The notes under the pieces: model-generated
The model's input: the letters and a program-made list of their open reading frames with translations, nothing else
What the model was told of the DNA's origin: nothing
The model's database searches: none
NCBI GenBank assembly: GCA_041674405.1
Contig: JBAYVT010000004.1
Span: 1 to 32,000, forward strand
Direction of reading: 5' to 3'
Length of the DNA: 32,000 nt
Source of the DNA: Patescibacteria group bacterium
GTDB lineage: Bacteria; Patescibacteriota; UBA1384; XYA2-FULL-43-10
Position numbers and translations under genes: made by a program
Shown here: piece by piece, positions 4,301 to 24,586 of the stretch
Numbering within the stretch: position 1 is the first letter of the stretch
Layout: every line of letters starts with the position of its first letter

Positions 4301-7300
4301 GCCAAAGATGGGGCTGCCAAAACACCATCGCCGTTTCTTGCCCTAACCACATAGCTATAAGAAGTGTTGCTGGATAGTCCAATATTGGCTATTCCAGAAT
4401 CTCCGCCCCAACCTTCTCTTGTTTGCCACGTTGCAAAGGCGCTCAATGTACCATCGGCTTTAAGATATTGTCCAGCGGCTGAGTTATAGATAATAAATTC
4501 GGTACTAGCCGGATTTGAATTTGCATTTATTATTATTGTTAAAGAGCTAGAAGAAGTTGCATTGACGGTTGGCGAAATTGAAGCATTAGCTGGCGAATAA
4601 ACATTGGCAGTACTCGAGAAATCAGTGGTAATCATGTCGCCATTTTCGGCTTTGACCTTATATGTGTATGAGACATTCGGGCTAAGACCAACATTTATAA
4701 ATCCGCTTGCACCACCCCAATCGGCATAGAGTTGCCAGTCTGGGTCATCTTGGAGCGTTCCATCAGCGTGTTTGACATATTTGCCGGCAGTATCATTGAA
4801 AATTGCATAACGAGTATTGGCATCAGGATTGCTATTTTTGTTAATAACAATCTTAATGCCGGAAGCGGTCGCCGACACTGTCGGGGCACCAGGAATATTG
4901 GCCAGTGTATAAACCGTCTTTTGATTAGAATCGTTTGAGCCATAATCATTGAATACATTTGCGTGGCGGGTATAGGAAGTATTGGCCGAAAGCCCGGTTT
5001 CATTCCAGCCTGTTGAATCAGCAGCTAAATCATGCAAGTCTGTGTGGTCGGTGTCTTCTACTTTCCAGCCAGTCTCTCCCGAGACATTACTCCAGCTCCA
5101 ATTAACTTGTGAAGCTGATGCAGCCGTGCCATTAAAATCGTTGGGTGCAATTGGCGCAACACAGGCGCCGGTTGCGAAGTTTGAAATTGCAGACCAGCCT
5201 CCTGTACCATTTGCATCAGAGGTAGATGATACTTTCCAATAATATGTCGTCACGTCAACCAGGTCAGATAGGCCATGTTGGGTATCTGTAATATTTGATG
5301 TTGTACCAAGATTTGTTGCATTCGTATCCGTACCATAAGAAAAATTATAACTATTGGCGCCGCTTGCAGCAGCCCATGAAGCCAAAGCAGTGGTTGAACA
5401 AATATTGGATACTTGCCTGTTGGTAGGAGGTCCGGGAGGAGTAACATCAGCTCCGGCAATTGAATAAGACGTTTCTGTGCCATCGCCATTTTTGGCTTTA
5501 ATCTTAAACCAATATTGAGTATTCCAAGGCTTTCCGAACAAATTATAAGTCGTCTCTGTCTGCCAAGCCATATCCACCGGATCTTGATAATCAGTTCCGT
5601 TGGCAGAATATTGAATCCAATAATTTGTGCCTTCGGGATTATTATTTGGGTTAATCGTCACATCGAAGTGATAACCATACGCGAGGACATAGTCCCCCGA
5701 TACAGTCGGCGCAGACGGTGTATTTGCCAAAGTATACTTCGGCGCTGAATACGCTGGGTCGGAATCGCTGCCTGATCCGGCGGCAATTATCTTGGCACAA
5801 TACTGTGTGTTGATACTTTTTCCGGTCACAGACTGCAAAGTTGCGCCGGCGGCCGCTGTGTAGTCGGGCGTATCAGGATAAGTTGCAAGCGAGCAGTCAG
5901 CATTGGAATTGGTCGAAATATAGACTTTGAATCCGGTCTCATCTGAGGAGTTATCGGTCCAAGTAGCATCAAACGAGGTAGAATCGATATTACCGATGGC
6001 CGCATCCGTCGGAGCGTTGGGCTTGCAGACAGCGCTTGAACTTATCAACCAGCCAACATTGCCAGAGCCGGTTGAATATGTCGCACAGAAAGAAGCACCA
6101 GTATTTGTCGATTTTGACACATCAACATAAGTGACTGCAGTAATCGTCGTCGGGTTAAATGCCCAGTTGGTTGTGCTGGATGGTGCTAGTATAATCGGAT
6201 GGTTAGCTGCACCAGCAATGTTTACCTTATCAAAGTCGTAAGTAGAGCCGGAATGGAAAGTCAATTTTGATGATTGGGTCGTGTCTGTAAACGTGCCGTT
6301 AACAGTCGCGGAATCAGCAAATACTACGCCAGAAGCTGACGCATTGGTTGAAGTCAAATTATTGAATTCTTGAATAGAGGTCCCATTTGATGAAGTAATC
6401 GTCTGAGTGTTCGAACCATTCAGGGTCACCACTTGTGTGCCAGTGCCAGGCGTTACCGCAATTCCGGCAAAATTGATATTCCCGCCAACAGAAATTGAAC
6501 CTGTGCCGAAGTCGATGGCATTGCCTGATAGGGTCCCACTCTGGCGTAAATCTCCTGCATCAGTATGAGAACCAGACTTAAGCAATATTACTCCGCCGTA
6601 GTTATTGCCACCAAGACCAGCATATAAACCATTAGAGGAAAGATTTACTCCATTCGTATCTAAAGTAGTGGTTTTATTAGAAGTTGCACCCGAAGCACTA
6701 ATATAGCCAGTGGTAGTAATACCCGAAGAAAGTGTAAATGTCACATTGTTAGTTTTGCCTACGTACTGCACATTCATATTGCCAAAATTGTATCCGGCAA
6801 TTGTAATATCCGAATTGGGATAATATTTAAGAAATCCACCACCAGACCAAGTAACCCCTGTGTTTACTAAAGGATCACCATCAGACTTGCCCAAATCTAA
6901 ATAATGTCCTGATGACAGAACTCCTCCAGAATAGACATATAAAAAGTTACCAACATAAATTGATGTATCTAAGGTGGTAGTCTGTCCATTGTGAGCACAC
7001 TTTAAATTATAGAAATCATAAGAAACTCCCGAAACTACCGCAAGTGCTTTCACACTTCCTGTCCCAGTCAAATCAACAGTAGAAGTGCCTGATGTTTCCG
7101 TAATATTCGTTCCGCTTGAATCCCAATTGCCTGAGACAGTCCAAGTGCCGGAGCCGTATTGAAGAACTCGGGTTGTGGAGCCGGAGGCAGTCATATTTGC
7201 GCAGAAAATATTGTGTGTATCAGCATTAAATGTGCCTTTGGTCAACGTGAAATCACTATTGGCGACAATATCGCCAGCTGCGGTGTAAGTCCCCGTTCCA

Positions 7301-10300
7301 TTGAAAGTTAGTTTGTAATAAGTTGTCGCAGTGATAGTCGGCGTGCCTGCACCCCGGTATGTTATGGTCGAAGTCGAAGACGTGAAGGTGTCGTTGATGA
7401 CCAAAGGCGTACCTCCGCCCCAAATTTCTATCGTTTTGTTTGAGGCGTCAAAATTACCAGCCGTAATTGTAAGCGTTGAACCCACAGTTATATCGCCCGC
7501 AGCGGTAAAGGTAGTGCCAGCTTGGTTGAAGAAGAGGTTGTAATAGCTGGCGGCAGCGACAGTCGTAGGACCCGATCCGGTGTATCTGACATTAGAAGTG
7601 AATGGATCAAACGTTCCATTAATTACAAGCGGCGTGCCAGATCCAGATAGGTAAAGATTGGTATTGCCCACATTGAAGGTGCCCGCGTTAACTGTCAAAA
7701 CGTTGGAGACGGTGTTGTTGCCGACTTCTGTAAAGGTTGTCCCTGTGTGGTTGATATATAGGTTGTAATAAGTTGTTCCTTTTACATTTGTCGCTGATGT
7801 GCCCTCATAAGAAATGGTTGAAGTAGATGGTGTAAATGTACCAGTATTAATAAATGGTGTGCCAGAACCAGTGAGGTGAATAGTCTTGTTAGAAGCATTA
7901 AATGTACCAGCATTGTTAGTGAAAACAGATGAAACTGTAATATCGCCGGCAGCAGTGAATGTAGTACTAGTATGATCTAGATAAAGATTGTTATAAGTCG
8001 TACCAGCAATATTTGTGGCGGAGGAGCCGGTATATTTGAAAGTTGAAGTCGAAGCGGTAAGCGCCCCGCCCGGAGCAGTTGCCGTACCCAGTGAATAGAA
8101 GGAAGCTGGAGCGTTTTGGCTGTTATAATCGGTGGTAACCCAAGGCTGAGTCCAAGCGACGCCATTGCCGACTCTTAACTCATCGAAGTAGGCATTTGCG
8201 TACGACGGACCGGCATAGAGGTTTGCCCCCAAGCGCAATGATCCAGTCAAGACAGGTGCCGACGCGGATGTATTTTGCCCGACCTGAGTGGCACCGACAT
8301 AAATCGTCCAGACACCACCGGAAGTTCGAGTTATGGTAAGCTTTTTCCAGCCGAGCGTTGTTATCGAGCCGGCTGGAGCTGTTACTACGCTTCCGGCGAC
8401 ATATGGAATATCGACATTGATCGAACCGTTAGTGTTGATAGTGGCAAATATCTGGCCTCCACTAAAACCACCCGGCCCCCTGCCGATGAAAGTGCTTACA
8501 CTGCTCAATGAATTGAGATATGTCCAAGTGCCCCATGATGCAGTCGCGCTATCGAGCCCGACCGGAGAGGTCTTGGTGAAGTAGGCCGAACTGCCGTCGA
8601 GCATCATGCTTTTGCCCACTGTCCCGTTTGCGCTATATGTGACGCTTCCGCTTGGTGTCAGATCATTGATATTTGATGTGGAGTCTGTCGCATTACCGGA
8701 AGCCTGATTCATATGCCAGACACCGGCGAAGCCATTGCTCCAGACCGCCTGCTGGTCGGCGGCGGAGGGCATAGTCGCCGAAGAGTTGCCCCAATAGAGA
8801 TAAAAAGTGGAATCAGCGTCACTGCTTAAAGAAGGAGCCTTAAACCAAACTTCCATCGTGTGTCCAGTGGTATCAACGCTTACGACTTGGTTTTTCAGGA
8901 CAGTGGTTGCATTGGAGTCGGTAACGCGGATATCTTTTCCGTCAGAGGCGACCTGCGACCAGAAATCAGCAGGAATGTTGGCCTCAGTCAAAAGTACCGG
9001 AAAATCGCTTACTCCACCCGTGCCGATTTTGGTGTGGTCAATTGTAATAGTGGAGCGATGGCCCCAGCCGGTCAGCCAAGCGCCGGTAGCGCCCGGAGTA
9101 ATCACAAATGGCGTTCCACTTCCGGTTAAATTAATTGTCTTATCCGCAGCATCAAATGTTCCGGCATTAATGGTAAAAACATTTGAAACTGTAATATCGC
9201 CAGCTGCTACATATGTTTCAACCGCTTGGTTAATGTATAAATTGTAATAGGTTGCTGAAGTTACACTTGTGTTACCCGAGGCATTTCCTGTATAGCTGAT
9301 TGTCGAGGTAGACGGAGTAAACGAGCCGTTCAAAACGAAGGGGGCACCAGTTGAGCCAGCTAAGGTAATTGTTTTATTTGAAGCATCGAATGTGCCGGCA
9401 TTAACTGTTAGAACATTATAAACTACAAAATTTGCCGCTGCCGTAAAGGTTGTATTGCTATGATCGAGGTAAAGGTTGTGATAATAAACCCCGGCAACAT
9501 TAGTTGCAGCTGCACCTGTATACTTGACAGTAGATGTGGAACGATGAAAAGAGGCGATTGATGATACAAGAGGTGTACCCGATCCGGATAAAGTAATAGT
9601 ATAACTAGACGCATCAAAAATGCCTGTATTTACAGTTAGCACCGAGGAAACCGTTATGTCGCCAGCTGCCGTAAAGGTTGTGTCGGCGTAATTGAAATAC
9701 AGATTGTTGTAGGTAGTAGAAGCAACATTCGTGGCCAATGTACCCTCGTAAGAGATGGTCGAGGTCGCGGGCGTAAAGGTACCGGTCACAACGAATGGAG
9801 TAGTTGAGCCGGTGAGGTGGAGTGTTCTTGACGACGCACTAAATGCTCCGGCATTAATTGTTAACACACCACTAACCGTAATATCACCAGCGGCAGTAAA
9901 GGTAGTGCCGGTATGATCTGCAGCATAAAGGTTGTAATAACTTAAGGCATTTACATTGGTAGCGTTTGCTCCCTGAAACTTAACTGTCGACGTGCCGATC
10001 GTAAAGGTCCCTGCAATAGAGAGTGGATCTCCAGAACCTGTCAAAACAAGGGTTGTGCCGTCAAGATTAACTGTGGCCGTCGCTGGAATGACTAGATTGG
10101 GAGTTGTCGAAGTAATGCCCGCCCCCGAGTTGGGCCGCCAAGCGTTTCCGGCAAGGACATAAAGTTTTTGGTCAGTATCGGTTTGTGTTGCGCCGGTTGG
10201 AAGGGTTAGGTCCCCCGTACCAGTATTAACCTCAAAGAAAATGTCTTCATCGGAAGAAACCGAATTGTCGTATTTGGAAATATCAGTATTGGAAAGTGTT

Positions 10301-13300
10301 TGATTGTCGGCTGAACCGATGGATAAATGTTTTTCATAAAGTGCTATGCCGGATACATCACCGGAGACATATTTTGTAACCGCATTTGCTTCATTGGCAT
10401 CGGCCACGCCATCAACAAAAACCGTGATCGTATCTCCAGCTGAAGGCTGGGTGACATTTGAGATTGACCAGGACCCTCCCGAAGTTGTACCAGTAGCCGC
10501 ATCGAGGCTCCCATTGATTGCCACTTTGACCGTTTCACTATCGCCGCAGTTGGTTGACTCATCATACTGTTTGCAGGTGCCGGAAATGGTGATACCCCCG
10601 GCGGGTACTGAATAAAAGGTTGAGGCGGAACTCTGATTATTAAATTCAGTTTGAATCCAGGGCTGAGTACGAATAGTTGAAGAAGCGGTAAAATTTTCAA
10701 ACTTTGCGCCTGTTTGCGATCCTCCCCAACTATTGTGTGCCCTCTGCCCTATGCCCACGTCTATCGCTCCTGTTGCATTTGGATCTCCATTCACCGTTGG
10801 ATGGGCAACGTCTGAGCCATCGATATAGAACTTCATCGAATTCCCTGAAGGCGAGAAAGTGAGAGAAACAAAATGCCAACCCGTTGTAAGGACATTCCCA
10901 GCACCTACCCATCCGTTAACATTGTCGTAATAAGAAATTTCAGCATTGTTATAGTCCCACTCATACGAAACGGTGGAATCATTCGAATATCGACTAATAA
11001 TTTGGTGGATGCCGTCTGAAACACTTGGAAAATAAACCATTCCTTCAAAGGTTTTGTCTTGAGCGTTAAGATTAAGCGAATCACTGCTGCCGACATTAAT
11101 TGTTTGACCTGCGGTATATTGCTGCGACTTTCCGTAAAGGCCGTCGGCTTGAACAGGAGTATTTGCGCCCGATTTGCTACCTGTGTTGCCGTTTCCGCTT
11201 GAATCAGAAATAGTTGAAGTCGTCACATCGTTCATGTGCCAGACACCGGCATAACCGTTTGACCATACTCCCTGTTTCCAGGAGGCTGGCGGGGCAACCG
11301 CCCCAGTATTACCCCAGTAAAGCTTAAAAACAGTATCGCTATCGCTCGAAAGACCGTCAGCCTTGAACCAGAGTTCCATTTTTTTGTTACCCGTATCAAG
11401 AGAAACTAGCTCGTGATTCATTAGTAAGGTATCGTCGTGGTTCATTATCCTGATATCTTTGCCATCGGCCGCGACCTGGCTCCAAAACAAAGCCGGGATA
11501 TTGGCCTCGGTGACAAGAACGGGGAAGTCGGCAACTCCGCCTGTACCAACCTTCGTGTGGTCAATCGTAATCGTGGTGTTATAATCCCAACTAGTCGGAG
11601 GAATGGGTATGGCTGTAAAGTCTTTTCCTGTGAGATCAGCTCCGGAAACCGTCGCACTCAAAGTTGCCGGGGTAAATGTGTAAGCTGTCTTGGTTGGGGT
11701 CAAAGTGTAGGTTCCATCGGGTACACCTGTAATCGTATAAGCTCCATTTTCGTCAGTATCATCGGATCTGGTACCATCAGACACAGTAACGCCAGAAATG
11801 CCAGTGCTAGACCAGTCGAGTATTGTGCCTGAGATGCTGTACGATGGCTCCTCGGCAACTGCAAAATCGGTGTCGGGCACATCTGATCCGCTCAATGCAA
11901 CGTCGGTACTGGTGGGCGAGAATGTTAGCCCTTCTATGGTTGGAGTGACAGTCCATGTCATACCGCTAAGCAAAGGCGGACTCGTGTAATTACCGCCGCC
12001 ATCGGCAGTAACATGAATTGTGGTTTGGCCAGAAGCGCTGAAAGCCACATCTGCCCCCGCTGCCTGGCTTGACGCTAGATATCTGACAATTACTATACCT
12101 GAGCCACCGTGCCCGCCAGCATAACTGCCCGAGTCAGCACCTGAACCACCGCCTCCGCCGCCAGTATTTGCCGTTCCGTCGGTTCCGTTTTGAGCCGATA
12201 TGCTCCCGGCTCCGCCACCACCTTTTCCTCCAGCTTTGGCACTTCCACCACGATCTGTCCTCGCTCCTCCTCCGCCACCTCCGGCGATCCATCTTGTTCC
12301 TGAAATATCAACGCCGGCATTAGCTGCTGTGAGCAAGCTTGAATATGTTGACAAGCCATCTCCGCCAGCACCGGCAGTATCTCCAGATGCATTTCCTCCT
12401 ACAGCGCCTGCGCCACCTCCTCCTGCTCCTCCCCAACCATATGCCGATGTTTCATCACCTCCATCATTACCTTGGTTTGCAGTACCAGAACCACCACTAC
12501 CATAAGTAGTACCATCACTAGCGCTTCCGCCACCGCCACTACCACCATTACTACCTGCTGTTCCAGAATACGGCCAAGTACTAGTTGTTCTTGATCCACC
12601 ACCGCCACCACCTACAGCCGTCAAGGTGTCGACGACAGAATTTTCGCCACTTTCCCCAGGAAGTCCTCCTCCCGCTTGCGCATTCCCGGCTCCTCCCAAA
12701 CCGACAGTAACTGGATATGATCCAGCTGAAAATGAATGGGAGCTTTCATGCAATAATCCTCCAGCACCACCGCCACCAGCGAAATATCCGCCGCCGCCGC
12801 CGCCAGCCACTAAGAGAACCTCTGCTTCTGCGGCTTCGGAGACGACAAGCGTGTCATCGGATTTAAAGGTGCGGATAGTGTATGCACCATCATAGATAAC
12901 TGTTCCGCCACTCATAGGATCGGATCCTGCAGCAACGGTTCCGCTAATAATGTTAGCTGCTACTGCAGTGGAATCTTGCCCTGTTACATTTGCATTGGTG
13001 ATAGAAATATCTGATATGGTAGCGGGGGTAAAGCCATAATTAGTCTTGCTGAAAGCGAGATTATAGGTGCCAGGAACTAATGGTGTCGTGGTAAATGTGC
13101 CGTTAGCGGCCGTAGTGGCAGTTGCGCTTGAGGTGCCAGTAACCGAAACCGTAACTCCCGACAATCCGTTGCCACCGTAGGTAACGGTTCCTGATATAGT
13201 CCATCCATCTGGATCCCCATCAGTGACAGTTGGGGCTGGGGCAGCTGCTAGTGCCCATGTGCCCTGATCTGGAGTGGCAGCATTGGCATCTTTATAAACA

Positions 13301-14487
13301 TCTGTCATCGTCATTGGATCTTGTATATACCAGTCGCTACCGCTCTGGTAGAGCATGCCCATATAGTCCGTTTTCATATATTGGCCAGGACCGACAGAAT
13401 CATACTGTCCGTTAAAATTTGTATTCCCTGCGCCGGCGACCAAATAGCCAGTACCACTAACTGTTACCGAAGTTGGTGCCGGGCTATCGCTTCCTGCAAT
13501 TACCCAAGTACCAAGTGGCGAAGATGAGTTATTCGTATAAGTTCCCAATGTACCAGGCCCACCCATGTTGTAATAGATCGAATATGTTCCCGTCCAGTTA
13601 GCATCTCCAAGTTCCCAGTAAGAATTAGAAGCATTATAATAGTACGCTATGCCATTCGAATTCATGCCTGTCATATTAGCATCAAAAACATAATTCCCAT
13701 TTGCCGCGCTAATCCCTGCGCCGCTGACGACATAAAGCGATGATTTTCTGGTAACAGTCGGCGCGCTACCGGGACTGTTGGCAGTCCAGCTACCATCTTG
13801 GGGATTTGCTGAATTTGTATAATACAGCATGTACATCCCATTAGGATCCATAACTTGCCATTGGCCGTAATTTTGAAGCACAAAGTTACTACTATTCATG
13901 TAGTAGCCGCCTCTGTCTGTGTATGTCCCATTTACCTCCGAGTATCCCGCACCTGAAGCAACATAGTCTGATCCATTAAGAGTAAAGGTCGGTGCTGTGC
14001 CCCAATAAGAACTCCATGATCCGACAGGAGTGTCACCGGTTGTTGTGAACATTTTTAGGCCTGATTGTTCGGAAAGAACCCAGTCACTGCCTGATTTGGT
14101 TATAGTACCCTGGCCCATCATGCCAGACATTGTATAAGGACCATCGTCTGTGCCATAATAAAAACCATCCAAATTCATGGTTCCGGAAATCGAGTAAAGG
14201 TGGTTTGTCGCTGCCTTCACCGGCTTAGGCGCAATAGAATTATAGCCCCACAAGCCAATCCCAAATGAGAAAAATAACAAAAATAAATAATGAGCCCACT
14301 TTGCCCCGCTCCACAAATGCCATCTGTAATACCATTGAAACTTCATCCGGCAAAAATTGTGTGCAGGTTCTAAGTGCGGGATTAATGTTCTCGTACTTTT
14401 TTGAATTTTCATAATTTCATCATCCAATTCCATGATTGTCATTCCGCAACGCTTGCTCCGATATTTTAATATTTTTGATCGCAGCAA
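1330..14487 (-). CDS. giant N-terminally anchored, repeat-rich cell-surface protein (4385 aa), likely an adhesin/lectin-type protein
   Basis: A single uninterrupted 13.2-kb ORF. An N-terminal hydrophobic anchor (KWAHYLFLLFFSFGIGLWGY, aa 63-83) is followed by: four novel aromatic/Gly-rich repeats; SGTV-type beta-sandwich domains; a 250-aa glycine-rich domain; two DUF2341-like plus LamG-like modules (TITIDHTK[VI]GTGGV[AS]DFPVL..., ...GVWHMN...); about 9 units of a 75-aa TTFTAAGDITVS...YYNLY repeat; at least 10 FN3-like domains; one Calx-beta-like domain; and two purple-acid-phosphatase-N-type FN3 domains. The start is uncertain: in-frame ATGs also occur at 14442, 14433, 14412 and 14346, and none has a clear SD. 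Confidence 0.9.
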   Translation of the reverse strand: MLRSKILKYRSKRCGMTIMELDDEIMKIQKSTRTLIPHLEPAHNFCRMKFQWYYRWHLWSGAKWAHYLFLLFFSFGIGLWGYNSIAPKPVKAATNHLYSISGTMNLDGFYYGTDDGPYTMSGMMGQGTITKSGSDWVLSEQSGLKMFTTTGDTPVGSWSSYWGTAPTFTLNGSDYVASGAGYSEVNGTYTDRGGYYMNSSNFVLQNYGQWQVMDPNGMYMLYYTNSANPQDGSWTANSPGSAPTVTRKSSLYVVSGAGISAANGNYVFDANMTGMNSNGIAYYYNASNSYWELGDANWTGTYSIYYNMGGPGTLGTYTNNSSSPLGTWVIAGSDSPAPTSVTVSGTGYLVAGAGNTNFNGQYDSVGPGQYMKTDYMGMLYQSGSDWYIQDPMTMTDVYKDANAATPDQGTWALAAAPAPTVTDGDPDGWTISGTVTYGGNGLSGVTVSVTGTSSATATTAANGTFTTTPLVPGTYNLAFSKTNYGFTPATISDISITNANVTGQDSTAVAANIISGTVAAGSDPMSGGTVIYDGAYTIRTFKSDDTLVVSEAAEAEVLLVAGGGGGGYFAGGGGAGGLLHESSHSFSAGSYPVTVGLGGAGNAQAGGGLPGESGENSVVDTLTAVGGGGGGSRTTSTWPYSGTAGSNGGSGGGGSASDGTTYGSGGSGTANQGNDGGDETSAYGWGGAGGGGAGAVGGNASGDTAGAGGDGLSTYSSLLTAANAGVDISGTRWIAGGGGGGARTDRGGSAKAGGKGGGGAGSISAQNGTDGTANTGGGGGGSGADSGSYAGGHGGSGIVIVRYLASSQAAGADVAFSASGQTTIHVTADGGGNYTSPPLLSGMTWTVTPTIEGLTFSPTSTDVALSGSDVPDTDFAVAEEPSYSISGTILDWSSTGISGVTVSDGTRSDDTDENGAYTITGVPDGTYTLTPTKTAYTFTPATLSATVSGADLTGKDFTAIPIPPTSWDYNTTITIDHTKVGTGGVADFPVLVTEANIPALFWSQVAADGKDIRIMNHDDTLLMNHELVSLDTGNKKMELWFKADGLSSDSDTVFKLYWGNTGAVAPPASWKQGVWSNGYAGVWHMNDVTTSTISDSSGNGNTGSKSGANTPVQADGLYGKSQQYTAGQTINVGSSDSLNLNAQDKTFEGMVYFPSVSDGIHQIISRYSNDSTVSYEWDYNNAEISYYDNVNGWVGAGNVLTTGWHFVSLTFSPSGNSMKFYIDGSDVAHPTVNGDPNATGAIDVGIGQRAHNSWGGSQTGAKFENFTASSTIRTQPWIQTEFNNQSSASTFYSVPAGGITISGTCKQYDESTNCGDSETVKVAINGSLDAATGTTSGGSWSISNVTQPSAGDTITVFVDGVADANEANAVTKYVSGDVSGIALYEKHLSIGSADNQTLSNTDISKYDNSVSSDEDIFFEVNTGTGDLTLPTGATQTDTDQKLYVLAGNAWRPNSGAGITSTTPNLVIPATATVNLDGTTLVLTGSGDPLSIAGTFTIGTSTVKFQGANATNVNALSYYNLYAADHTGTTFTAAGDITVSGVLTINAGAFSASSRTLHLTGSTTPFVVTGTFTPATSTISYEGTLATNVASTTYNNLYFNYADTTFTAAGDITVSSVLTVNTGIFDASSYTITLSGSGTPLVSSIASFHRSTSTVKYTGAAATNVAGVYYHNLYLDHSNTTFTAAANFVVYNVLTVNAGTFDASNKTITLAGSTGAPFVLNGSFTPSTSTISYTGNASGNTSVTSATYYNLYINQAVETYVAAGDITVSNVFTINAGTFDAADKTINLTGSGTPFVITPGATGAWLTGWGHRSTITIDHTKIGTGGVSDFPVLLTEANIPADFWSQVASDGKDIRVTDSNATTVLKNQVVSVDTTGHTMEVWFKAPSLSSDADSTFYLYWGNSSATMPSAADQQAVWSNGFAGVWHMNQASGNATDSTSNINDLTPSGSVTYSANGTVGKSMMLDGSSAYFTKTSPVGLDSATASWGTWTYLNSLSSVSTFIGRGPGGFSGGQIFATINTNGSINVDIPYVAGSVVTAPAGSITTLGWKKLTITRTSGGVWTIYVGATQVGQNTSASAPVLTGSLRLGANLYAGPSYANAYFDELRVGNGVAWTQPWVTTDYNSQNAPASFYSLGTATAPGGALTASTSTFKYTGSSATNIAGTTYNNLYLDHTSTTFTAAGDITVSSVFTNNAGTFNASNKTIHLTGSGTPFINTGTFTPSTSTISYEGTSATNVKGTTYYNLYINHTGTTFTEVGNNTVSNVLTVNAGTFNVGNTNLYLSGSGTPLVINGTFDPFTSNVRYTGSGPTTVAAASYYNLFFNQAGTTFTAAGDITVGSTLTITAGNFDASNKTIEIWGGGTPLVINDTFTSSTSTITYRGAGTPTITATTYYKLTFNGTGTYTAAGDIVANSDFTLTKGTFNADTHNIFCANMTASGSTTRVLQYGSGTWTVSGNWDSSGTNITETSGTSTVDLTGTGSVKALAVVSGVSYDFYNLKCAHNGQTTTLDTSIYVGNFLYVYSGGVLSSGHYLDLGKSDGDPLVNTGVTWSGGGFLKYYPNSDITIAGYNFGNMNVQYVGKTNNVTFTLSSGITTTGYISASGATSNKTTTLDTNGVNLSSNGLYAGLGGNNYGGVILLKSGSHTDAGDLRQSGTLSGNAIDFGTGSISVGGNINFAGIAVTPGTGTQVVTLNGSNTQTITSSNGTSIQEFNNLTSTNASASGVVFADSATVNGTFTDTTQSSKLTFHSGSTYDFDKVNIAGAANHPIILAPSSTTNWAFNPTTITAVTYVDVSKSTNTGASFCATYSTGSGNVGWLISSSAVCKPNAPTDAAIGNIDSTSFDATWTDNSSDETGFKVYISTNSNADCSLATYPDTPDYTAAAGATLQSVTGKSINTQYCAKIIAAGSGSDSDPAYSAPKYTLANTPSAPTVSGDYVLAYGYHFDVTINPNNNPEGTNYWIQYSANGTDYQDPVDMAWQTETTYNLFGKPWNTQYWFKIKAKNGDGTETSYSIAGADVTPPGPPTNRQVSNICSTTALASWAAASGANSYNFSYGTDTNATNLGTTSNITDTQHGLSDLVDVTTYYWKVSSTSDANGTGGWSAISNFATGACVAPIAPNDFNGTAASASQVNWSWSNVSGETGWKVEDTDHTDLHDLAADSTGWNETGLSANTSYTRHANVFNDYGSNDSNQKTVYTLANIPGAPTVSATASGIKIVINKNSNPDANTRYAIFNDTAGKYVKHADGTLQDDPDWQLYADWGGASGFINVGLSPNVSYTYKVKAENGDMITTDFSSTANVYSPANASISPTVNATSSSSLTIIINANSNPASTEFIIYNSAAGQYLKADGTLSAFATWQTREGWGGDSGIANIGLSSNTSYSYVVRARNGDGVLAAPSLAASKYTLANVPGAPDASAVSASAIKIFINQNSNPAGTRYAIYNETLGKYVKHADGSLQNDADWQTYSDWGGASGFTNSGLTAGTEYAYQMKAENNDGAETSMSALVHTITGYPSVQFAAATSQNSISSGSNNISINLSEISGTDASVDYAATGGTAVKDTDYTFTNGTASIAHGQNGVSVNLTLINNHLVGSNKTIVFTLSNPVNTSIGATSTLTFTIINDNPAPSGSFAIAQGSTTNSRDLSLNLTYGTATQVIASTNSDFSDSDYIGVASSIGLALPDVDAAYTICLKYKDQYGNESATYSQSITLDRAAPADPTALSAQAGNHTISLSWTNPSDSDLLKIKVYRGAAAGFDLGSANKTFEIYGGGATYVDPDATNNIDYYYKVTALDGVGNESGVSNEVTARADSDNPTTPGKPGVTETTQNINGNIVATARKLTFNWSASEDINSGLKNYIINIGSASGRNDVVSEAEIDAGTTSFAYEFGVDGTYFVRVSASDKMENISASSDEYIIAIDTTAPGRPEDAVMYDVSDRADNIFAAAIAWKSSTDAISGLKGYVVSKNGSALNVGPNGITGGIVSDPKTGYSFYLDLSQANLKTSYSIKAVDLAGNITPEVAATLADTDITRTTSQKAGDTTIILPDAIIGEGKLEISDIKVEPSGVISDKTQAKATWSTSVPATSQVEFGTSANYDRKTDIDTGLNSSHTVILPDLNPATTYHFRVISKDKRGNEIFSSDQTFTTGSKVKQKSILDLIAETLSNSFSRIWSSVRNLFSANHDMVYAADNAMSSLDTLFVSNISTPTKPSYALYWPKGKGNVSIQRSEDGGSFVTIGETDQNFYLDFSAKTNANYTYKVGELTGVSSDELSGKSVISAIKIESGAVSKDNASVIVTFKTDKLAKSQVLYGEGESLNLQTPLDEALNQSHTILIENLKPTRNYSFELKTIDKSGENVTTSAIQKFVAENAPTDMSLFEIIVKALQDALSGFDKWMRG
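3643..3972 (-). other. Calx-beta-like domain (aa 3506-3615)
   Basis: SVQFAAATSQNSISSGSNNISINLSEISGTDASVDYAATGGTAVKDTDYTFTNGTASIAHGQNGVSVNLTLINNHLVGSNKTIVFTLSNP matches the Calx-beta pattern (V.Y.T..GTA..G.DY....G.l.F..Ge....i.v.i..D). Confidence 0.6.
3973..6024 (-). repeat. array of seven FN3-like domains (aa 2822-3505)
   Basis: Units of about 90-100 aa with the spacing W...Y...Y.[VF].A.N..G. Units 5 and 7 are about 75% identical (KYTLAN[IV]PGAP...NSNP...RYAI[FY]N[DE]T[AL]GKYVKHADG[TS]LQ[DN]D[PA]DWQ). Confidence 0.65.
7168..8070 (-). repeat. array 2 of the same 75-aa coding repeat
   Basis: About 4.5 units at aa 2140-2440, directly after DUF2341/LamG copy 2. Confidence 0.65.
8083..9072 (-). 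other. DUF2341-like plus LamG-like module, copy 2 (aa 1806-2135)
   Basis: TITIDHTKIGTGGVSDFPVLLTEANIPADFWSQVASDGKDIRV...LYWGN then GVWHMNQASGNATD...IYVG. The first 45 aa are about 85% identical to copy 1. Confidence 0.6.
9088..10050 (-). repeat. array 1 of about 75-aa coding repeats (TTFTAAGDITVSxVLTxNAGxFxASxxTIxLTGSGTPxVxxGTFTPxTSTISYxGxxATNVxxxxYxNLY)
   Basis: About 4.5 units at aa 1480-1800, probably a beta-solenoid. Confidence 0.65.
10603..11592 (-). other. DUF2341-like plus LamG/concanavalin-A-like lectin module, copy 1 (aa 966-1295)
   Basis: TITIDHTKVGTGGVADFPVLVTEANIPALFWSQVAADGKDIRI...LYWGN then GVWHMNDVT...SGNGNTG...FYIDG, the pattern I associate with DUF2341 followed by Laminin_G_3. 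Confidence 0.6.
12079..12822 (-). other. segment encoding a glycine-rich domain (aa 556-803) of the giant protein
   Basis: Runs of GGGGGG separated by short S/T/A/N stretches. The domain starts EVLLVAGGGGGGY and ends GGHGGSGIVIVRY. The GGN codons raise local G+C and create shadow ORFs on both strands (12093-12895). Confidence 0.75.
13222..14175 (-). repeat. coding repeats: four copies of an uncharacterised 75-95-aa module (Y-[VL]-V-[SA]-G-A-G-x4-N-G-x-Y ... W ... APT[VF]T)
   Basis: aa 105-422 of the giant ORF. Aligned by eye: SDYVASGAGYSEVNGTY.., SLYVVSGAGISAANGNY.., TGYLVAGAGNTNFNGQY... Each copy ends in ..AP(A)PT(S)VT. Confidence 0.6.
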
Positions 14488-20839: not shown

Positions 20840-20878
20840 CTCGACGCGAACCAAGACTGAATCGGGAGGTTGACCAAC

Positions 20879-21364
20879 ATGTCCGACCGTAATCTTCTAT
20901 GTGCCCGAGAGATTCTTGAGAAGATCTATCTTTCACGGTATATCTTTCTCTCTGGTCTTTCAGGGTACGACACCGAAGCACAATCCGCCATTGGCACCTT
21001 CGTGGTGCCTACATCCGAGCAACTTCGCTACACAGCCGAACAACTCGGCTATGTCTCCGCCACCGAGCGCCACTCGTGCGTCAATCAGCTCGCATATTCA
21101 CTCACTGCTCTGCTTGTCCGCGATCATGCCGGGCAATTCGCGTGTTACGATCTCGAGTCATTTCGAGACCTCTCCTCTGGCTTCCAGATGTGGAATACCA
21201 AGGAGCACTTCGAGCACAAGAAAGTGCTTCCCCGAGACACGGAGTTCGAGATTAGCATGCACGTGACGCGATCTCGAATCAGCCCTCACGGGCTGAGCGT
21301 CGTCGAAGTGGAACTCAACAGGGGCGTCGATGGTTATGTCCATTTCGCCGTACAGGTAGATTAG
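20879..21364 (+). CDS. hypothetical protein (161 aa), possibly a hotdog-fold FcoT/AfsA-like thioesterase-type protein
   Basis: SD GGGAGG lies 9 nt upstream of the ATG at 20879. About 55-58% G+C against about 40% in the neighbours. The segment F.VP.S......G..S..E...C.NQ.AY.L.ALLV resembles the central-helix region of FcoT-like hotdog proteins; this is recalled by eye only and is weak. It is the only plus-strand gene besides dnaE. Confidence 0.6.
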   Translation: MSDRNLLCAREILEKIYLSRYIFLSGLSGYDTEAQSAIGTFVVPTSEQLRYTAEQLGYVSATERHSCVNQLAYSLTALLVRDHAGQFACYDLESFRDLSSGFQMWNTKEHFEHKKVLPRDTEFEISMHVTRSRISPHGLSVVEVELNRGVDGYVHFAVQVD

Positions 21365-21377
21365 GAGGTGAGATCAG

Positions 21378-21405
21378 AAAAACGAGCCTTTAGGGGCTCG
21401 TTTTT
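21378..21405. terminator. bidirectional rho-independent terminator
   Basis: AAAAACGAGCC-TTTAGG-GGCTCGTTTTT: an 11-bp stem (6 GC-containing pairs plus an A/T extension) and a 6-nt loop, with A-run and T-run flanks. It lies between the convergent 20879-21364 (+) and rplS (-) genes. Confidence 0.8.
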
Positions 21406-21430
21406 CATATTTAGATCACATTATTTCAAT

Positions 21431-22042
21431 TTACTCAGCTTTGGTCTCTTCGTCTTCGGCTTCGTCAGCCTTTTCCTCTGTGGGTTCGGCAGCACGCTCG
21501 TCTGTGTTTGATCCGGCTTCGACTTCCTCGGCTTCACCATCAGCTTTTCCGCTTCTGGCTGCTAGGGCGCTTTCCGCCTTCTTTGCTAGCTCGGCGTCTT
21601 TCTCCGCTTTCTTCGCAGCATCGGCTTCGGCTTGTTTGGCTTTTTCCGCCTCAATTTTGGCTAGCTCTTCCTCGGCTTCTTTCTCTTCCCACATCTTGTA
21701 CTCGCGGCTTTGTTCTTTCAGGCGGGCATTCTTGCCGGTAAGCTCGCGCATGAAGTAAAGCTTGGCACGACGAACCTTCGAGTGTTTGATTCGCTCTATC
21801 TTGATGATTCTTGGCGAATGAAGCGGGAAAACTCGCTCAACACCGATACCAAAAGACTCCTTGCGGACTGTGAAGGTGCCATCAAGGCCTTTTCCGTGCT
21901 TCACTGCAATAACAAGGCCCTCAAAGATCTGGACACGCTCTTTGGCGCCTTCTTTGACCTTGAGGTGTACTCGAATCGTGTCACCAGAGACAATGTCCGG
22001 AACATTTTTTTTCATCAATTTTTTCTCGATTGTGGTTTGCAT
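21431..22042 (-). CDS. rplS: 50S ribosomal protein L19 with a C-terminal extension of about 93 aa rich in Glu, Lys and Ala
   Basis: Core: [91 protein letters not shown]. The start is taken at the ATG at 22042 (MQTTIEKK); the track start at 22075 is GTG. Confidence 0.9.
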
Positions 22043-22099
22043 TTTACAATTCCGATCTAATTCAGACTTCTGCACTCAAGATTTTGAATTCAGGAGTCC

Positions 22100-22130
22100 G
22101 CTCTCCTCCCGCCAGTGACGGGAGGAGAGC
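22100..22130. other. perfect 12-bp GC-rich hairpin (GCTCTCCTCCCG-N7-CGGGAGGAGAGC)
   Basis: Arms at 22100-22111 and 22119-22130 with a 7-nt loop, 57 nt upstream of the rplS ATG. No U-tract follows on the minus strand. Confidence 0.7.
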
Positions 22131-22283
22131 CGGAGAGGGCGACGAGCCCGGTGGACCTTCGTCCAAACGAGCAAGTCGTGATGCTCCACTCTACCCTGCA
22201 GGAGTCGAGTGGCTTGCTGCACGAGGACAGCGCGCTGACACTAGCCCCTCGTGCAACGAGATGGAGTCTCTCGTGCGAGCGTG

Positions 22284-22628
22284 TTACCTCACCGTCGCCG
22301 AAAACTGGCTCCTCGCTAGGGGCGAGGACTCGAAGTGATAGACGAGGGCCTGCGCCCATCCCGGATCTACGGGAACCCTCGGGCTTAGCAGGATCTCCGG
22401 GGTGCTGATGAGCCGAGGCCCATCTGCCGCGACAATGTGTACTCCTTCGCCAGGCATACGGTAGACAAGCAAGTTCCCGCCCTCGGACCAGGCATAGCCG
22501 CACAGCCCCCTGACGACACTCTGGAGGGTGTGCTGCCCGAGCTTGACCAGCTCACGGACGAGGTCTTCGTACCCCGAACGCATGAGCTGTATCCACTTTG
22601 CCCTACGATTCGAACTTCTCTTAGCCAT
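22284..22628 (-). CDS. hypothetical protein (114 aa), possible RelE/ParE-superfamily toxin-like protein
   Basis: Strong SD GAGGAGGAAGCACG-ATG. The segment SEGGNLLVYRMPGEGVHIVAADGPR resembles the G.Y(R)L.Y.v....v.I..v..R core strands of RelE/ParE/YoeB toxins. About 60% G+C. The C-terminal 40 aa are not family-like. Confidence 0.4.
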   Translation of the reverse strand: MAKRSSNRRAKWIQLMRSGYEDLVRELVKLGQHTLQSVVRGLCGYAWSEGGNLLVYRMPGEGVHIVAADGPRLISTPEILLSPRVPVDPGWAQALVYHFESSPLARSQFSATVR

Positions 22629-22914
22629 CGTGCTTCCTCCTCAATGCGGAATTGGCACTAGGCATCCTGCTGTCAGGTTTATTTGGCGCATGAAGTCCAG
22701 CGCCTCCTCTCGTGTGTGATTGACCCTCTAAAGGGCCTTGCTGCGTTTCTGAAACAACCCCACTCGCACAGAAAGTTCTGCAACCACCTCCCTTGAACAC
22801 TATGAGATTTTCGGCAGGCAGGATTCCCCGATCTATGCCTACCGACAACCATTGCTAAATTGCTGTATTGTTAAATTGCTACCAAAACAATTTAACAGTT
22901 TAACAATGTAACAA

Positions 22915-23199
22915 TTATTTTTTATCTGCCTCTACAGACACAAAAGTTCTTTTGTCTTTATTGCTGTTGAAAGCAACTACTCTTTTCTCTTGAAATTTGA
23001 CCATGCCGTCTTTCAGCGCATAAAGCGTATCGTCGCAGCCAATTCCGACATTTGCTCCGGCATGAAATTTGGAACCGCGCTGGCGGACGATTATGCCTCC
23101 GGCAAGGATTTTCTGGTCACCAAAAACTTTGACGCCAAGTCTTTGCGCTCGTGAATCCCGTCCCAGTCTTGTACTACCAGCAGCCTTCTTATGTGCCAT
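22915..23199 (-). CDS. rpmA: 50S ribosomal protein L27
   Basis: [59 protein letters not shown] lies 7 nt upstream of the ATG at 23199; the longer track ORF start is rejected. Confidence 0.92.
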
Positions 23200-23281
23200 A
23201 TCAATTCCTTCGGAATAATGACTAAATCCAAATGTCAAATTTCAAATTTGGGAATTAAACCATTTTGTTTGTCATTTGAAA

Positions 23282-24586
23282 TTAGGATTTAGGTGCTTGT
23301 AAAAAGAGAATTTCTCTTTTTACAACCTGATAATCCCGCCCGTAAACTAAAGGCGGACGAAGTAGAGTATAACCCATTTTTTCGATCTCGTCAACACTCG
23401 CAGCGAAAAGGCTGATCTGTCCGCCATCTGATGATTCGACGAGGGGAAAGACGAGGCAAACAGCTGACAGCTGACAGCTGCTAGCTCGCAGTAAACTAGC
23501 CAAGTTTTTAAGAAAACCCAGATATATTCCTTCTAGCTTCTTAAATTCGCCAAGAACAGCATTTTTCGAGGGCTTAAATTTTTTTGGTTCACCGAGATAC
23601 GGCTCGGCGACGATGATTACATCGCGAGTCGAAAGTTCCAAGTCCAAAGTCGAAAGCGGGGCAAGAAAATCATGCTTGGTTGCGTCAGCTTGAAAGATTG
23701 AAAATGTTTTGCCTGTCATTGCGAGCCCGGAGGGCGCGGCAATCTTTTTAATAGATTGCTTCGTCATTTCATTCCTCGCAATGACCCATTCTATGTTTAG
23801 TTTCGTATCCATCACAGCTTTTTCCGAAATATCCGAAGCAATAATATCGTGCCCAAGCATGAGAGCTTCTATGGGAATATTGCCCGATCCGCAGAATGGA
23901 TCGACGACAATAGATTTATCATTTGATTCGCCAATACTTAGATTCACCATCATTCGAGCTAGCTTCGGCGGCAACATTCCGGAATATTTATCTCCGGCTG
24001 GCTTGCCATAATCACGCTTCGACCACTCGAACGGATTCGATATTGCAATCAATCGACCCAAATACTCGTCAAAGACACCTACTTCGACTCCCTTGCCATC
24101 TAGCTTGTTGGTTTGTGAAACAATTGTTGAGAGCTCCTGCCCCTCCTTAATCGCTACGAATCGAGACTTAATTTGAGGCTTAAGGGCAGTCTTAACTTCA
24201 ATTCCAAGCTTGTTGATATTCAAAGTTCGTTTTGAAAAATTTGAGATTCCAAAGTCAATTTTCGAACCATTTTCACTTTTTTCAGCGATCACCATATCAA
24301 TGATCTCTTTTTTAAGATCAGGACTTGCCTTTTTGTACAGTTCAAATATCTTTGTCGTTCCGCCCAGGCTGCTTATCAAGCTGTCAGCTGTCATCTGCAA
24401 GCTACCAGCTTCTTCAAACTTGATGATAGCGATATTGTCGGATACACTTGAAATGCAAAAACCAAAACCAAAGCGTCCTAAAACCGCCTTTACTTCAAGG
24501 AGGGCTAGCTCGGATTCTCTACCGAGTACGAAGGCGAATGTATTTTTGTTGTGATCTGTGTCCATAAATTCATCTAAATCTATCAC
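23282..24586 (-). CDS. THUMP-like / UPF0020-family SAM-dependent RNA methyltransferase (Trm11/RlmL-like)
   Basis: GMLPPKLARMMVNLS and VVDPFCGSGNIPIEALMLGHDIIASDIS (SAM-binding motif I of the UPF0020 family), plus IIVAEPYLGEP (a motif IV-like (D/N/E)PPY variant). The track start at 24586 is GTG; the ATG at 24565 (MDTDHN) is an alternative. Confidence 0.75.
   Translation of the reverse strand: MIDLDEFMDTDHNKNTFAFVLGRESELALLEVKAVLGRFGFGFCISSVSDNIAIIKFEEAGSLQMTADSLISSLGGTTKIFELYKKASPDLKKEIIDMVIAEKSENGSKIDFGISNFSKRTLNINKLGIEVKTALKPQIKSRFVAIKEGQELSTIVSQTNKLDGKGVEVGVFDEYLGRLIAISNPFEWSKRDYGKPAGDKYSGMLPPKLARMMVNLSIGESNDKSIVVDPFCGSGNIPIEALMLGHDIIASDISEKAVMDTKLNIEWVIARNEMTKQSIKKIAAPSGLAMTGKTFSIFQADATKHDFLAPLSTLDLELSTRDVIIVAEPYLGEPKKFKPSKNAVLGEFKKLEGIYLGFLKNLASLLRASSCQLSAVCLVFPLVESSDGGQISLFAASVDEIEKMGYTLLRPPLVYGRDYQVVKREILFLQAPKS
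23715..23785. repeat. 71-nt nested palindrome made of two head-to-head GTCATTGCGAG...GCAATCT elements, inside the methyltransferase CDS
   Basis: Outer arms GTCATTGCGAG (23715-23725) and CTCGCAATGAC (23775-23785) are a perfect 11-bp repeat. Inner arms GCAATCT (23739-23745) and AGATTGC (23753-23759) are 7 bp around a TTTTAAT loop. The region is translated as WVIARNEMTKQSIKKIAAPSGLAMTG. Confidence 0.8.

Follow-up and report, generated by a model that had tools for sequence, protein, structure and literature searches.

The block between rpmA and rplS

The analysis concerns a block of about 0.87 kb (positions 22043-22914, minus strand) that lies between the ribosomal protein genes rpmA and rplS on contig JBAYVT010000004.1 of a metagenome-assembled genome from an uncultured Patescibacteria group bacterium (assembly GCA_041674405.1). 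The window referred to throughout is the whole stretch that was analysed, i.e., the first 32,000 nucleotides (nt) of that 158-kb contig. Read along the minus strand, on which all the genes concerned are encoded, the order is rpmA, the block (hereafter the island) and rplS. The upstream gene, rpmA (22915-23199, minus strand), encodes ribosomal protein L27 and was identified from its open reading frame (ORF) translation and Pfam family Ribosomal_L27. The downstream gene, rplS (21431-22042, minus strand), encodes ribosomal protein L19, was identified from its ORF translation and the gene call, and has no Shine-Dalgarno (SD) sequence of its own. Within the island, a gene of 114 codons, ORF114, is flanked on both sides by predicted hairpins, and the hairpins closest to rplS belong to a conserved module.

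The island stands out in composition, with 61.5-64.5% G+C in 200-nt windows over 22100-22599, against 38-46% across most of the 32-kb window and about 43% in the sequence surrounding the island. The original prediction, made from the letters alone, had described a G+C-rich insert from a hand count, and this count is borne out; its value of 37% for gltX was too low, the measured G+C being 42%. Overlapping ORFs of 48-137 amino acids (aa) are spread across the six frames of the block, and their products are rich in Arg, Ser, Gly and Pro. These ORFs have flat G+C over codon positions and no Pfam match, in agreement with their earlier description as nonsense, from which only the minus-strand ORF at 22284-22628 had been excepted.

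This exception is ORF114 (22284-22628, minus strand), which encodes a basic orphan protein (pI 9.9) with an Arg/Lys-rich N-terminus, listed in NCBI as 'hypothetical protein WC080_03035 [Patescibacteria group bacterium]'. Its SD sequence, GAGGAGGAAG (22633-22642, minus strand), was read directly from the sequence and lies 5 nt before the ATG; the strong SD claimed for this ORF, GAGGAGGAAGCACG-ATG, is indeed there. An exhaustive phmmer search against 1.84 billion cluster representatives returned one true relative, P0002, which also has 114 aa (E = 1.4e-14). Weaker matches, which involved either repetitive proteins that aligned in several places or long proteins that aligned over a short stretch only, were put down to chance. 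A word-indexed search of 5.8 billion proteins, run with the single ORF114 sequence and with the two-sequence profile, returned only the two family members. Two sequences carry ORF114, the window and the locus of P0002, L083. In L083, which comes from an unrelated sample, P0002 is encoded between L27 and L19, in the same place as ORF114.

The two proteins align without internal gaps at 38% identity, against 63-92% for the neighbouring genes of the window and L083. Codon positions 1, 2 and 3 of the gapless alignment have identities of 0.54, 0.63 and 0.36, respectively, and the ORF114 frame is the only one of six that is free of stops in both genomes. L083 has GAAGGAGAAGCACU-AUG at the same place as the SD of ORF114, and in both copies the strong SD is followed by AAGCAC(G/U)AUGGC. 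Codon-position G+C of ORF114 is 0.62/0.48/0.73. Given the same-length ortholog at the same locus, the distribution of substitutions over codon positions, the only shared open frame and the coding-type G+C, ORF114 is a genuine, fast-evolving protein-coding gene and the sole real gene of the block. As a small basic protein, it may bind nucleic acids or the ribosome.

Hairpins and the rplS-proximal module

Relative to dinucleotide shuffles, the predicted fold of the block has z = -6.8 on the minus (sense) strand and z = -4.7 on the plus strand. Stability is about -0.41 kcal/mol per nt in the island versus about -0.25 in its flanks. The 241-nt spacer between ORF114 and rplS (22043-22283) has z = -5.35, the 286-nt spacer between rpmA and ORF114 has z = -3.0, and the 3' spacer of L083 has z = -8.4, while the coding part of ORF114 folds no better than shuffles (z = -0.7). 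By these predicted folds, the flanks of ORF114 are non-coding arrays of stable hairpins on the sense strand.

On the rpmA side, an AT-rich imperfect palindrome of about 26 bp with 8-nt periodic TTGTTAAA-type repeats starts at the rpmA stop codon (22851-22915, minus strand), where inverted repeats I1-I4, direct repeat D1 and a long hairpin in the fold were found. Over 112 nt it shares 83% identity with L083, and the related locus L003 has it too. A second AT-rich palindrome with 8-nt periodic repeats flanks rpmA on its other side (about 23218-23367, minus strand), in the intergenic region upstream of this gene, which folds with z = -5.9. Different AT-rich repeat clusters occur at one end of other island loci.

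After the palindrome comes the predicted 5' hairpin (22812-22844, minus strand), formed by CGGUAGGCA/UGCCUGCCG around the conserved loop UAGAUYGGGGAAUYC. Its GGUAGGCA/UGCCUGCC pairing is replaced by CAGACA/UGUCUG in L083, a change from G-C to A-U in which both sides have altered, and the 15-nt loop is almost identical. It is followed by a strong SD-like sequence, AAGGGAGGUG (22785-22794, minus strand), with no convincing ORF behind it; in relatives, this is the slot of a zinc-ribbon ORF. Alignment with L083 then gives two local hairpins (22722-22737 and 22685-22704, minus strand) around the invariant block AAUCACACA (22713-22721). The first, GGCCCU/AGGGUC, becomes GGCACC/GGGUGCC in L083, and the second, GGCGC/GCGCC, is the same in both. 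Both of these stems had been named in the original prediction and are present in the sequence. The long-range helix proposed alongside them fared less well: its two 7-nt complementarities exist, but the minimum-energy fold takes the local hairpin at 22812-22844, and the helix was rejected because it competes with this conserved hairpin and is absent from L083.

In the fold of the spacer between ORF114 and rplS, four consecutive hairpins are predicted at 22258-22272, 22216-22257, 22186-22212 and 22140-22178 (minus strand). Three of the four are found in the L083 spacer, with their order kept and their sizes similar, and the long hairpin GCACGAGG/CCUCGUGC corresponds to CGUGAGGUG/CACCUCACG there. 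Taken as a whole, the 3' spacers of the window and L083 have five hairpins in common order, ending in a GC clamp and a terminal hairpin; the spacer of the window begins with one additional small hairpin. As MAFFT and RNAalifold on the two full spacers were limited by the non-structural alignment, reliance was placed on the independent folds and on a seven-sequence alignment of the terminal hairpin.

The GC clamp (22100-22130, minus strand) was found by repeat search and folding, and pairs a pyrimidine arm, CUCUCCUCCCG, with a purine arm, CGGGAGGAGAG, through 12 perfect bp (14 in the predicted fold). The perfect 12-bp stem that the original prediction placed here is therefore confirmed; nowhere else in the 32 kb does a perfect GC-rich stem reach 9 bp. 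The terminal hairpin (22059-22101, minus strand), with the core CUG-AAUUCAA...UUGAGU-CAG, ends 16 nt before the rplS start and is built in three tiers, namely an outer stem, CUG/CAG and AUUCAA/UUGAAU. In the alignment of seven loci, 89% of cells are paired, against 31-45% in slid controls; 7 of 18 pairs have changed on both sides, and none of 500 shuffles reached the observed pairing or covariation score. Given about ten G-U cells in the alignment, the structure is sense-strand specific.

A covariance model built from this alignment, R1, added two cases (L010 and L092). On the sense strand, the seven sequences used for training scored 37-57 bits and the two added cases 24-32 bits, against 16-27 bits on the antisense strand. 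Each significant match lies just upstream of rplS, and R1 has no match in island-free relatives or other phyla. The clamp and terminal hairpin module was thus found upstream of rplS in nine related genomes. In all eight complete loci, a GC-rich clamp of 8-14 bp stands 0-4 nt before the terminal hairpin, with a sequence that is wholly different from genome to genome. The distance from the end of the hairpin to the rplS start ranges from 0 to 160 nt depending on the genome, and in island genomes rplS lacks an SD, whereas the internal island ORFs have very strong ones. The module has what is asked of a ribosomal-protein leader, namely a conserved covarying structure in the 5' untranslated region of a ribosomal protein gene.

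Rfam 15 gave no match at gathering threshold over the whole 32 kb, and only chance microRNA and small nucleolar RNA matches at E up to 10 over 21900-23000. When 11-12 related loci were scanned, no island matched any family; the unmatched families include RF00556, RNase P, tmRNA, 6S, group I and II introns, GOLLD, ROOL, OLE and HEARO. ARAGORN found no tRNA or tmRNA. The folds and the Rfam scans together uphold the earlier view of the flanks as hairpin-rich non-coding sequence, and of the block as one without a known RNA family. A full-text literature search found no description of the rpmA-rplS island locus.

No sigma-70-like promoter was found inside the block on the minus strand, and no terminator-like site was found in 21300-23400, where the GC clamp is followed by GGACUCCUGAAUUC, which is not a U-tract. 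Because neither an internal promoter nor a terminator was found, we infer that rpmA, the island and rplS share one transcript. Some relatives have a tract with more U/C here (e.g., CUUUCUCU in L091), which may act as a weak terminator.

Islands in related genomes and their origin

Related loci were collected by searching an L19 probe against GTDB species genomes and JGI metagenomes, and L27 and L19 were located in each locus. Within a Berkelbacteria-like group, rpmA and rplS are 20-58 nt apart in the island-free L005-L009, L011, L090 and L094, and 117 nt apart in L093. Among relatives that lack the island, spacers of 13-58 nt or overlapping genes are found. The rpmA stop and the rplS start often overlap as TAATG in island-free relatives (e.g., L005, L006 and L009), which indicates translational coupling of the two genes in these sister genomes. 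Synteny therefore agrees with the original prediction in that the block is an extra segment relative to close relatives, in which rpmA and rplS abut or overlap.

Islands are carried by L083, L003, L004, L010, L012, L088, L091, L107, L112 and the truncated L092. Those of the relatives measure 0.55-1.46 kb and have 48-54% G+C, in hosts of 38-45% G+C. In a neighbour-joining tree of L27 and L19, the islands belong to two basal clades and to L003, and the genomes that lack one form a single derived clade; outgroups have short rpmA-rplS spacers. This distribution fits one old gain of the island, followed by later loss. Sliding-window folds of ten island loci gave z = -4.1 to -7.6 at the rplS-side end in all ten and z = -4 to -7 at the rpmA-side end in most, the middle and the flanking genes being mostly ordinary. 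BLASTN between islands finds little similarity except for the AT-rich palindrome by rpmA (window, L083 and L003) and a block of roughly 45 nt before rplS. Helix-like blocks conserved by eye occur in the 5' half of L004, L012 and L091, where GCCCUU...AAGGGC surrounds a variable hairpin and CAGGAGGUG...ACCUCCUG is found.

Given that islands are present in some genomes and absent from others at one site, with ORF content that differs by genome and with conserved ends around a variable middle, they could be site-specific mobile or exchangeable cassettes, i.e., small GC-rich elements that integrate into the rpmA-rplS junction or replace one another there through recombination. In such cassettes, the clamp and terminal hairpin would be a conserved end or the site of recombination, with the small ORFs as cargo. 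The G+C and codon-position pattern is typical of a GC-rich source, and the low identity of ORF114 next to its neighbours points the same way. However, no integrase, transposase or relaxase is among the called genes near the island, and there are no convincing terminal inverted repeats or target duplications, the one weak direct repeat having 24 nt and 71% identity. No second copy of the island exists within the 32-kb window, BLASTN of the block against phages and plasmids gave no match, and scans of IMG/VR with the ORF114 profile and a terminal-hairpin pattern returned nothing. The strand-specific hairpin with its G-U pairs is moreover as expected of RNA, not DNA. A dispersed repeat or an element derived from a MITE, PATE or IS was rejected, since the 32 kb contain a single copy, terminal inverted repeats are lacking and no transposase is nearby.

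The history of the island also argues against the cassette explanation. Two related clades have the island at one and the same site, and island content is congruent with the host tree. When the window is compared with L083 at 4-fold degenerate sites of conserved residues, ORF114 has an identity of 0.45 and five flanking genes have 0.33-0.66; as these identities are near saturation and indistinguishable, ORF114 has diverged for as long as its neighbours. Hence, the block is probably not recently acquired foreign DNA, as one reading in the original prediction had it, and we consider exchangeable cassettes unlikely. G+C at third codon positions (GC3) of ORF114 is 0.73 in the window and 0.67 in L083, versus 0.40-0.61 in neighbours. 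Since synonymous sites are near saturation and yet GC3 of ORF114 stays high, the high G+C of the island is a maintained equilibrium, not the fading relic of a recent transfer. It is a reasonable guess that selection for a compact, nuclease-resistant transcript maintains it.

Past the far end of rplS and on the opposite strand is another variable, GC-rich island. That of the window holds an ORF of 161-164 aa (20870-21364, plus strand; 53% G+C) with only a faint FcoT Pfam match, and L083 has in the same position an unrelated 72-aa ORF (2884-3102, minus strand; 62% G+C).

The variable middle of the island is where its small ORFs lie, and those preceded by an SD differ between sublineages. In L083, L003, L010, L088 and L107, the first island gene is an ORF of 29-56 aa with paired-Cys zinc-ribbon motifs, of the form CxxC...CxxC in four of the five (L083 1225-1434; L003 2981-3136; L010 3165-3272; L088 2747-2848; L107 219-389). 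Each is preceded by a strong SD-like sequence, GGGAGGTG in L083 and L107, and in databases these ORFs match generic zinc ribbons. In the window, the SD of this slot is retained (22785-22794), followed 3 nt on by a doubtful 34-aa TTG ORF (22679-22783) with atypical codon-position G+C; an intact zinc-ribbon copy is missing and has been lost. L083 also has a 34-aa Arg-rich ORF with a pI of 12. L088 and L107 have in common a protein of 96-112 aa that is unrelated to ORF114 (a profile-profile comparison gave a probability of 0.1%), and ORFs of 49-63 aa are present in L004, L012, L091, L010, L003 and L112.

Such ORFs could have arisen de novo in an ancestral GC-rich, non-coding, structured spacer and then gained strong SDs, with ORF114 (window and L083), the 96-112-aa protein (L088 and L107) and the 50-60-aa ORFs elsewhere as the outcome in each lineage. 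GC-rich sequence contains few stop codons. A cradle of new genes of this kind would account for long ORFs in all six frames, for unrelated ORF families in the same slot of different sublineages, for a single cluster of ORF114 homologs among the 1.84 billion representatives and for the lack of a known domain in any of the ORFs. Against it, the G+C pattern of ORF114 is that of an established gene, not the flat one of fresh non-coding sequence, and the zinc-ribbon ORFs recur in both clades. A further hint at one old divergent family comes from weak reciprocal best matches between the C-terminus of ORF114 and other island ORFs (HMM and phmmer, 323-segment database), which at E = 0.06-0.4 are not significant. 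Although compatible with the structured-leader interpretation given below, de novo origin is in our estimate improbable. Conversely, a single, highly divergent family could include the principal small ORFs of the various islands. The weak matches place residues of about 82-98 of ORF114 (about 22335-22385 in the window, minus strand) against L010 3458-3625, L004 3464-3655 and L091 3132-3293, with the short common motif VDPGWAQAL / VDLGWATAA / GDLSAFCAA / PDLSALTAA.

The opposite extreme, in which the whole block is a single large non-coding structured RNA and ORF114 an accidental frame, accords with the high G+C, the strong fold z-scores of the block and the nonsense-like ORFs in the other frames. 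It is largely refuted by the comparison with L083, in which the frame, length and SD of ORF114 are all kept, codon-position identities are those of a coding sequence and every other frame has stops. The ORF114 segment, moreover, is no more folded than shuffles. This makes a purely non-coding block very improbable.

The original prediction also saw in ORF114 a resemblance to RelE/ParE/YoeB toxins and proposed an orphan toxin controlled by an RNA partner. ORF114 is basic and has structured RNA upstream of it, and its AlphaFold2 model, made from the two-sequence alignment and of low confidence (mean predicted local distance difference test score of 48), has three helices and then three strands, an order loosely like that of ParE/RelE. 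Profile searches do not support the resemblance. ORF114 matched no Pfam, NCBIfam, PADLOC or PHROGs family at E up to 10, P0002 had no NCBIfam or PADLOC match at E up to 10 and no Pfam match at E up to 1, and a PDB sequence profile search with ORF114 returned chance matches only (E above 1). Using tblastn, ORF114 had no match among 72,556 plasmids and only chance mycobacteriophage matches among phages (E = 0.9). The lack of an adjacent antitoxin ORF, noted earlier, holds: the neighbours are rpmA and rplS, and no ribbon-helix-helix, Phd/YefM or helix-turn-helix ORF stands beside ORF114. Membership of the RelE/ParE/YoeB/HigB group is therefore not supported by sequence searches or gene context, there being neither a profile match nor a cognate antitoxin gene. 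A type III (ToxIN-like) toxin-antitoxin system was rejected as well, because the GC-rich leader of ORF114 has no ToxI-type tandem RNA repeat array, the only repeat in the block being three overlapping 14-nt AT-rich units beside rpmA. Given also that the locus lies within a ribosomal-protein operon and is vertically inherited, and that unrelated ORFs occupy the slot in sister lineages, an orphan RelE/ParE-type or type III toxin checked by flanking structured RNA is very unlikely.

Assembly chimerism, a possibility that the original prediction had itself raised, is unlikely because the ENA and Logan assemblies are 100% identical over both island junctions, and the abrupt change in composition notwithstanding, we give practically no credence to GC-rich DNA of another organism having been joined into a contig of the Candidate Phyla Radiation (CPR), as L083 and L084, which come from an independent sample, have the same architecture, and so do about ten more genomes.

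Elsewhere in the window, L19 has a Glu/Ala/Lys-rich C-terminal extension of about 85 aa (21431-21690, minus strand) that is common to the closest relatives. A giant ORF of 4385 aa (1330-14487, minus strand) has CarboxypepD_reg, DUF2341 and Gly_rich_2 Pfam matches and is probably a surface protein.

Interpretation and relation to known systems

We favour, with about even confidence, a clade-specific structured rpmA-rplS region that is also an rplS leader and a host of orphan mini-genes in a Berkelbacteria-like lineage of Patescibacteria. Its established elements are a real gene, the structure, a covarying conserved module, host-following inheritance and maintained composition. Among the three readings offered in the original prediction, it is the unclassified structured RNA or leader that fits best, and the orphan toxin and the foreign insertion that do not.

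Under this interpretation, the island splits a gene pair that is apparently translationally coupled in sister genomes. It would be read through from the rpmA promoter, and its hairpin arrays would act as processing, stability or partial-termination/attenuation barriers, so that rpmA, the accessory ORF and rplS would no longer be expressed in step. The clamp and terminal hairpin would be a cis-acting rplS leader and a putative operator for L19 feedback, and the strong SDs may let the internal ORFs initiate inside tightly folded GC-rich RNA.

Several points weigh against this interpretation. Given the varying distance between hairpin and start and the lack of an SD in rplS, masking of the ribosome-binding site is not the mechanism, and the terminal hairpin would have to act other than via the rplS start site. 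As ORF114 is present in two sequences only, most hairpin comparisons rest on a single pair. Its coding part is not unusually folded, so selection on RNA structure alone does not explain its GC3, and its codon-position G+C fits a gene native to a genome of ~60% G+C, which leaves room for an outside origin. The neighbour-joining tree was built on about 210 residues and places L003 with uncertainty, so one gain followed by one loss is not secure. Finally, co-transcription, processing and translation are all inferred.

A bolder version of the structured-leader interpretation, which we regard as speculative and rather unlikely, is a new dual-function RNA class in Patescibacteria. It would consist of a long, selection-maintained GC-rich structured RNA with a module controlling L19 synthesis or transcript processing, and would at the same time be a protected nursery in which lineage-specific mini-proteins (ORF114 and the zinc-ribbon peptides) arise and turn over; ORF114 might bind island hairpins via its arginine-rich N-terminus.

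To our knowledge, almost no regulatory RNAs have been described in the CPR, and in this poorly studied group the module offers a concrete candidate, open to testing, for a new RNA motif associated with rplS. With a composition far from that of its genome despite saturated synonymous sites, the island is also a clean natural case for the upkeep of local G+C. Its orphan mini-proteins, in a fixed and highly expressed context, are useful for the origin and divergence of such genes, and a false toxin-antitoxin lead has been removed.

In comparison with known systems, ORF114 is like the RelE/ParE superfamily in being small and basic and in having a low-confidence model with helices before a three-stranded sheet. 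It differs in its genomic setting and in having neither a sequence match in any library nor an antitoxin partner. The islands resemble integron cassettes with attC sites, which likewise have small promoterless ORFs, each followed by a hairpin whose structure is kept more than its sequence, and a non-host composition. However, the island has no integrase and no array of repeated sites, its G-U pairs indicate folding at the RNA level, and RYYYAAC/GTTRRRY cores were not seen in it, by eye only, no attC model having been run.

As arrays of stable hairpins that lie between the cistrons of a putative single transcription unit and lack a U-tract, the spacers are also comparable with E. coli REP/BIME elements and with the RNase III sites of phage T7. 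The island differs from both in occurring once in 32 kb, in being far longer and clade-specific, and in being combined with ORFs; a dispersed REP-like repeat was rejected, with no other copy in 32 kb.

The Bacillota L19 leader, RF00556, is the remaining comparison. Up to E = 10, the island matches neither its model nor any other Rfam model, the hairpin here stands at a variable distance from the start, and rplS has no SD to mask. The leader here is moreover embedded in a protein-coding island of 0.55-1.5 kb, and its L19 operator is only putative. The likeness lies in a conserved, covarying structure in the rplS 5' leader, on the sense strand and within one lineage.

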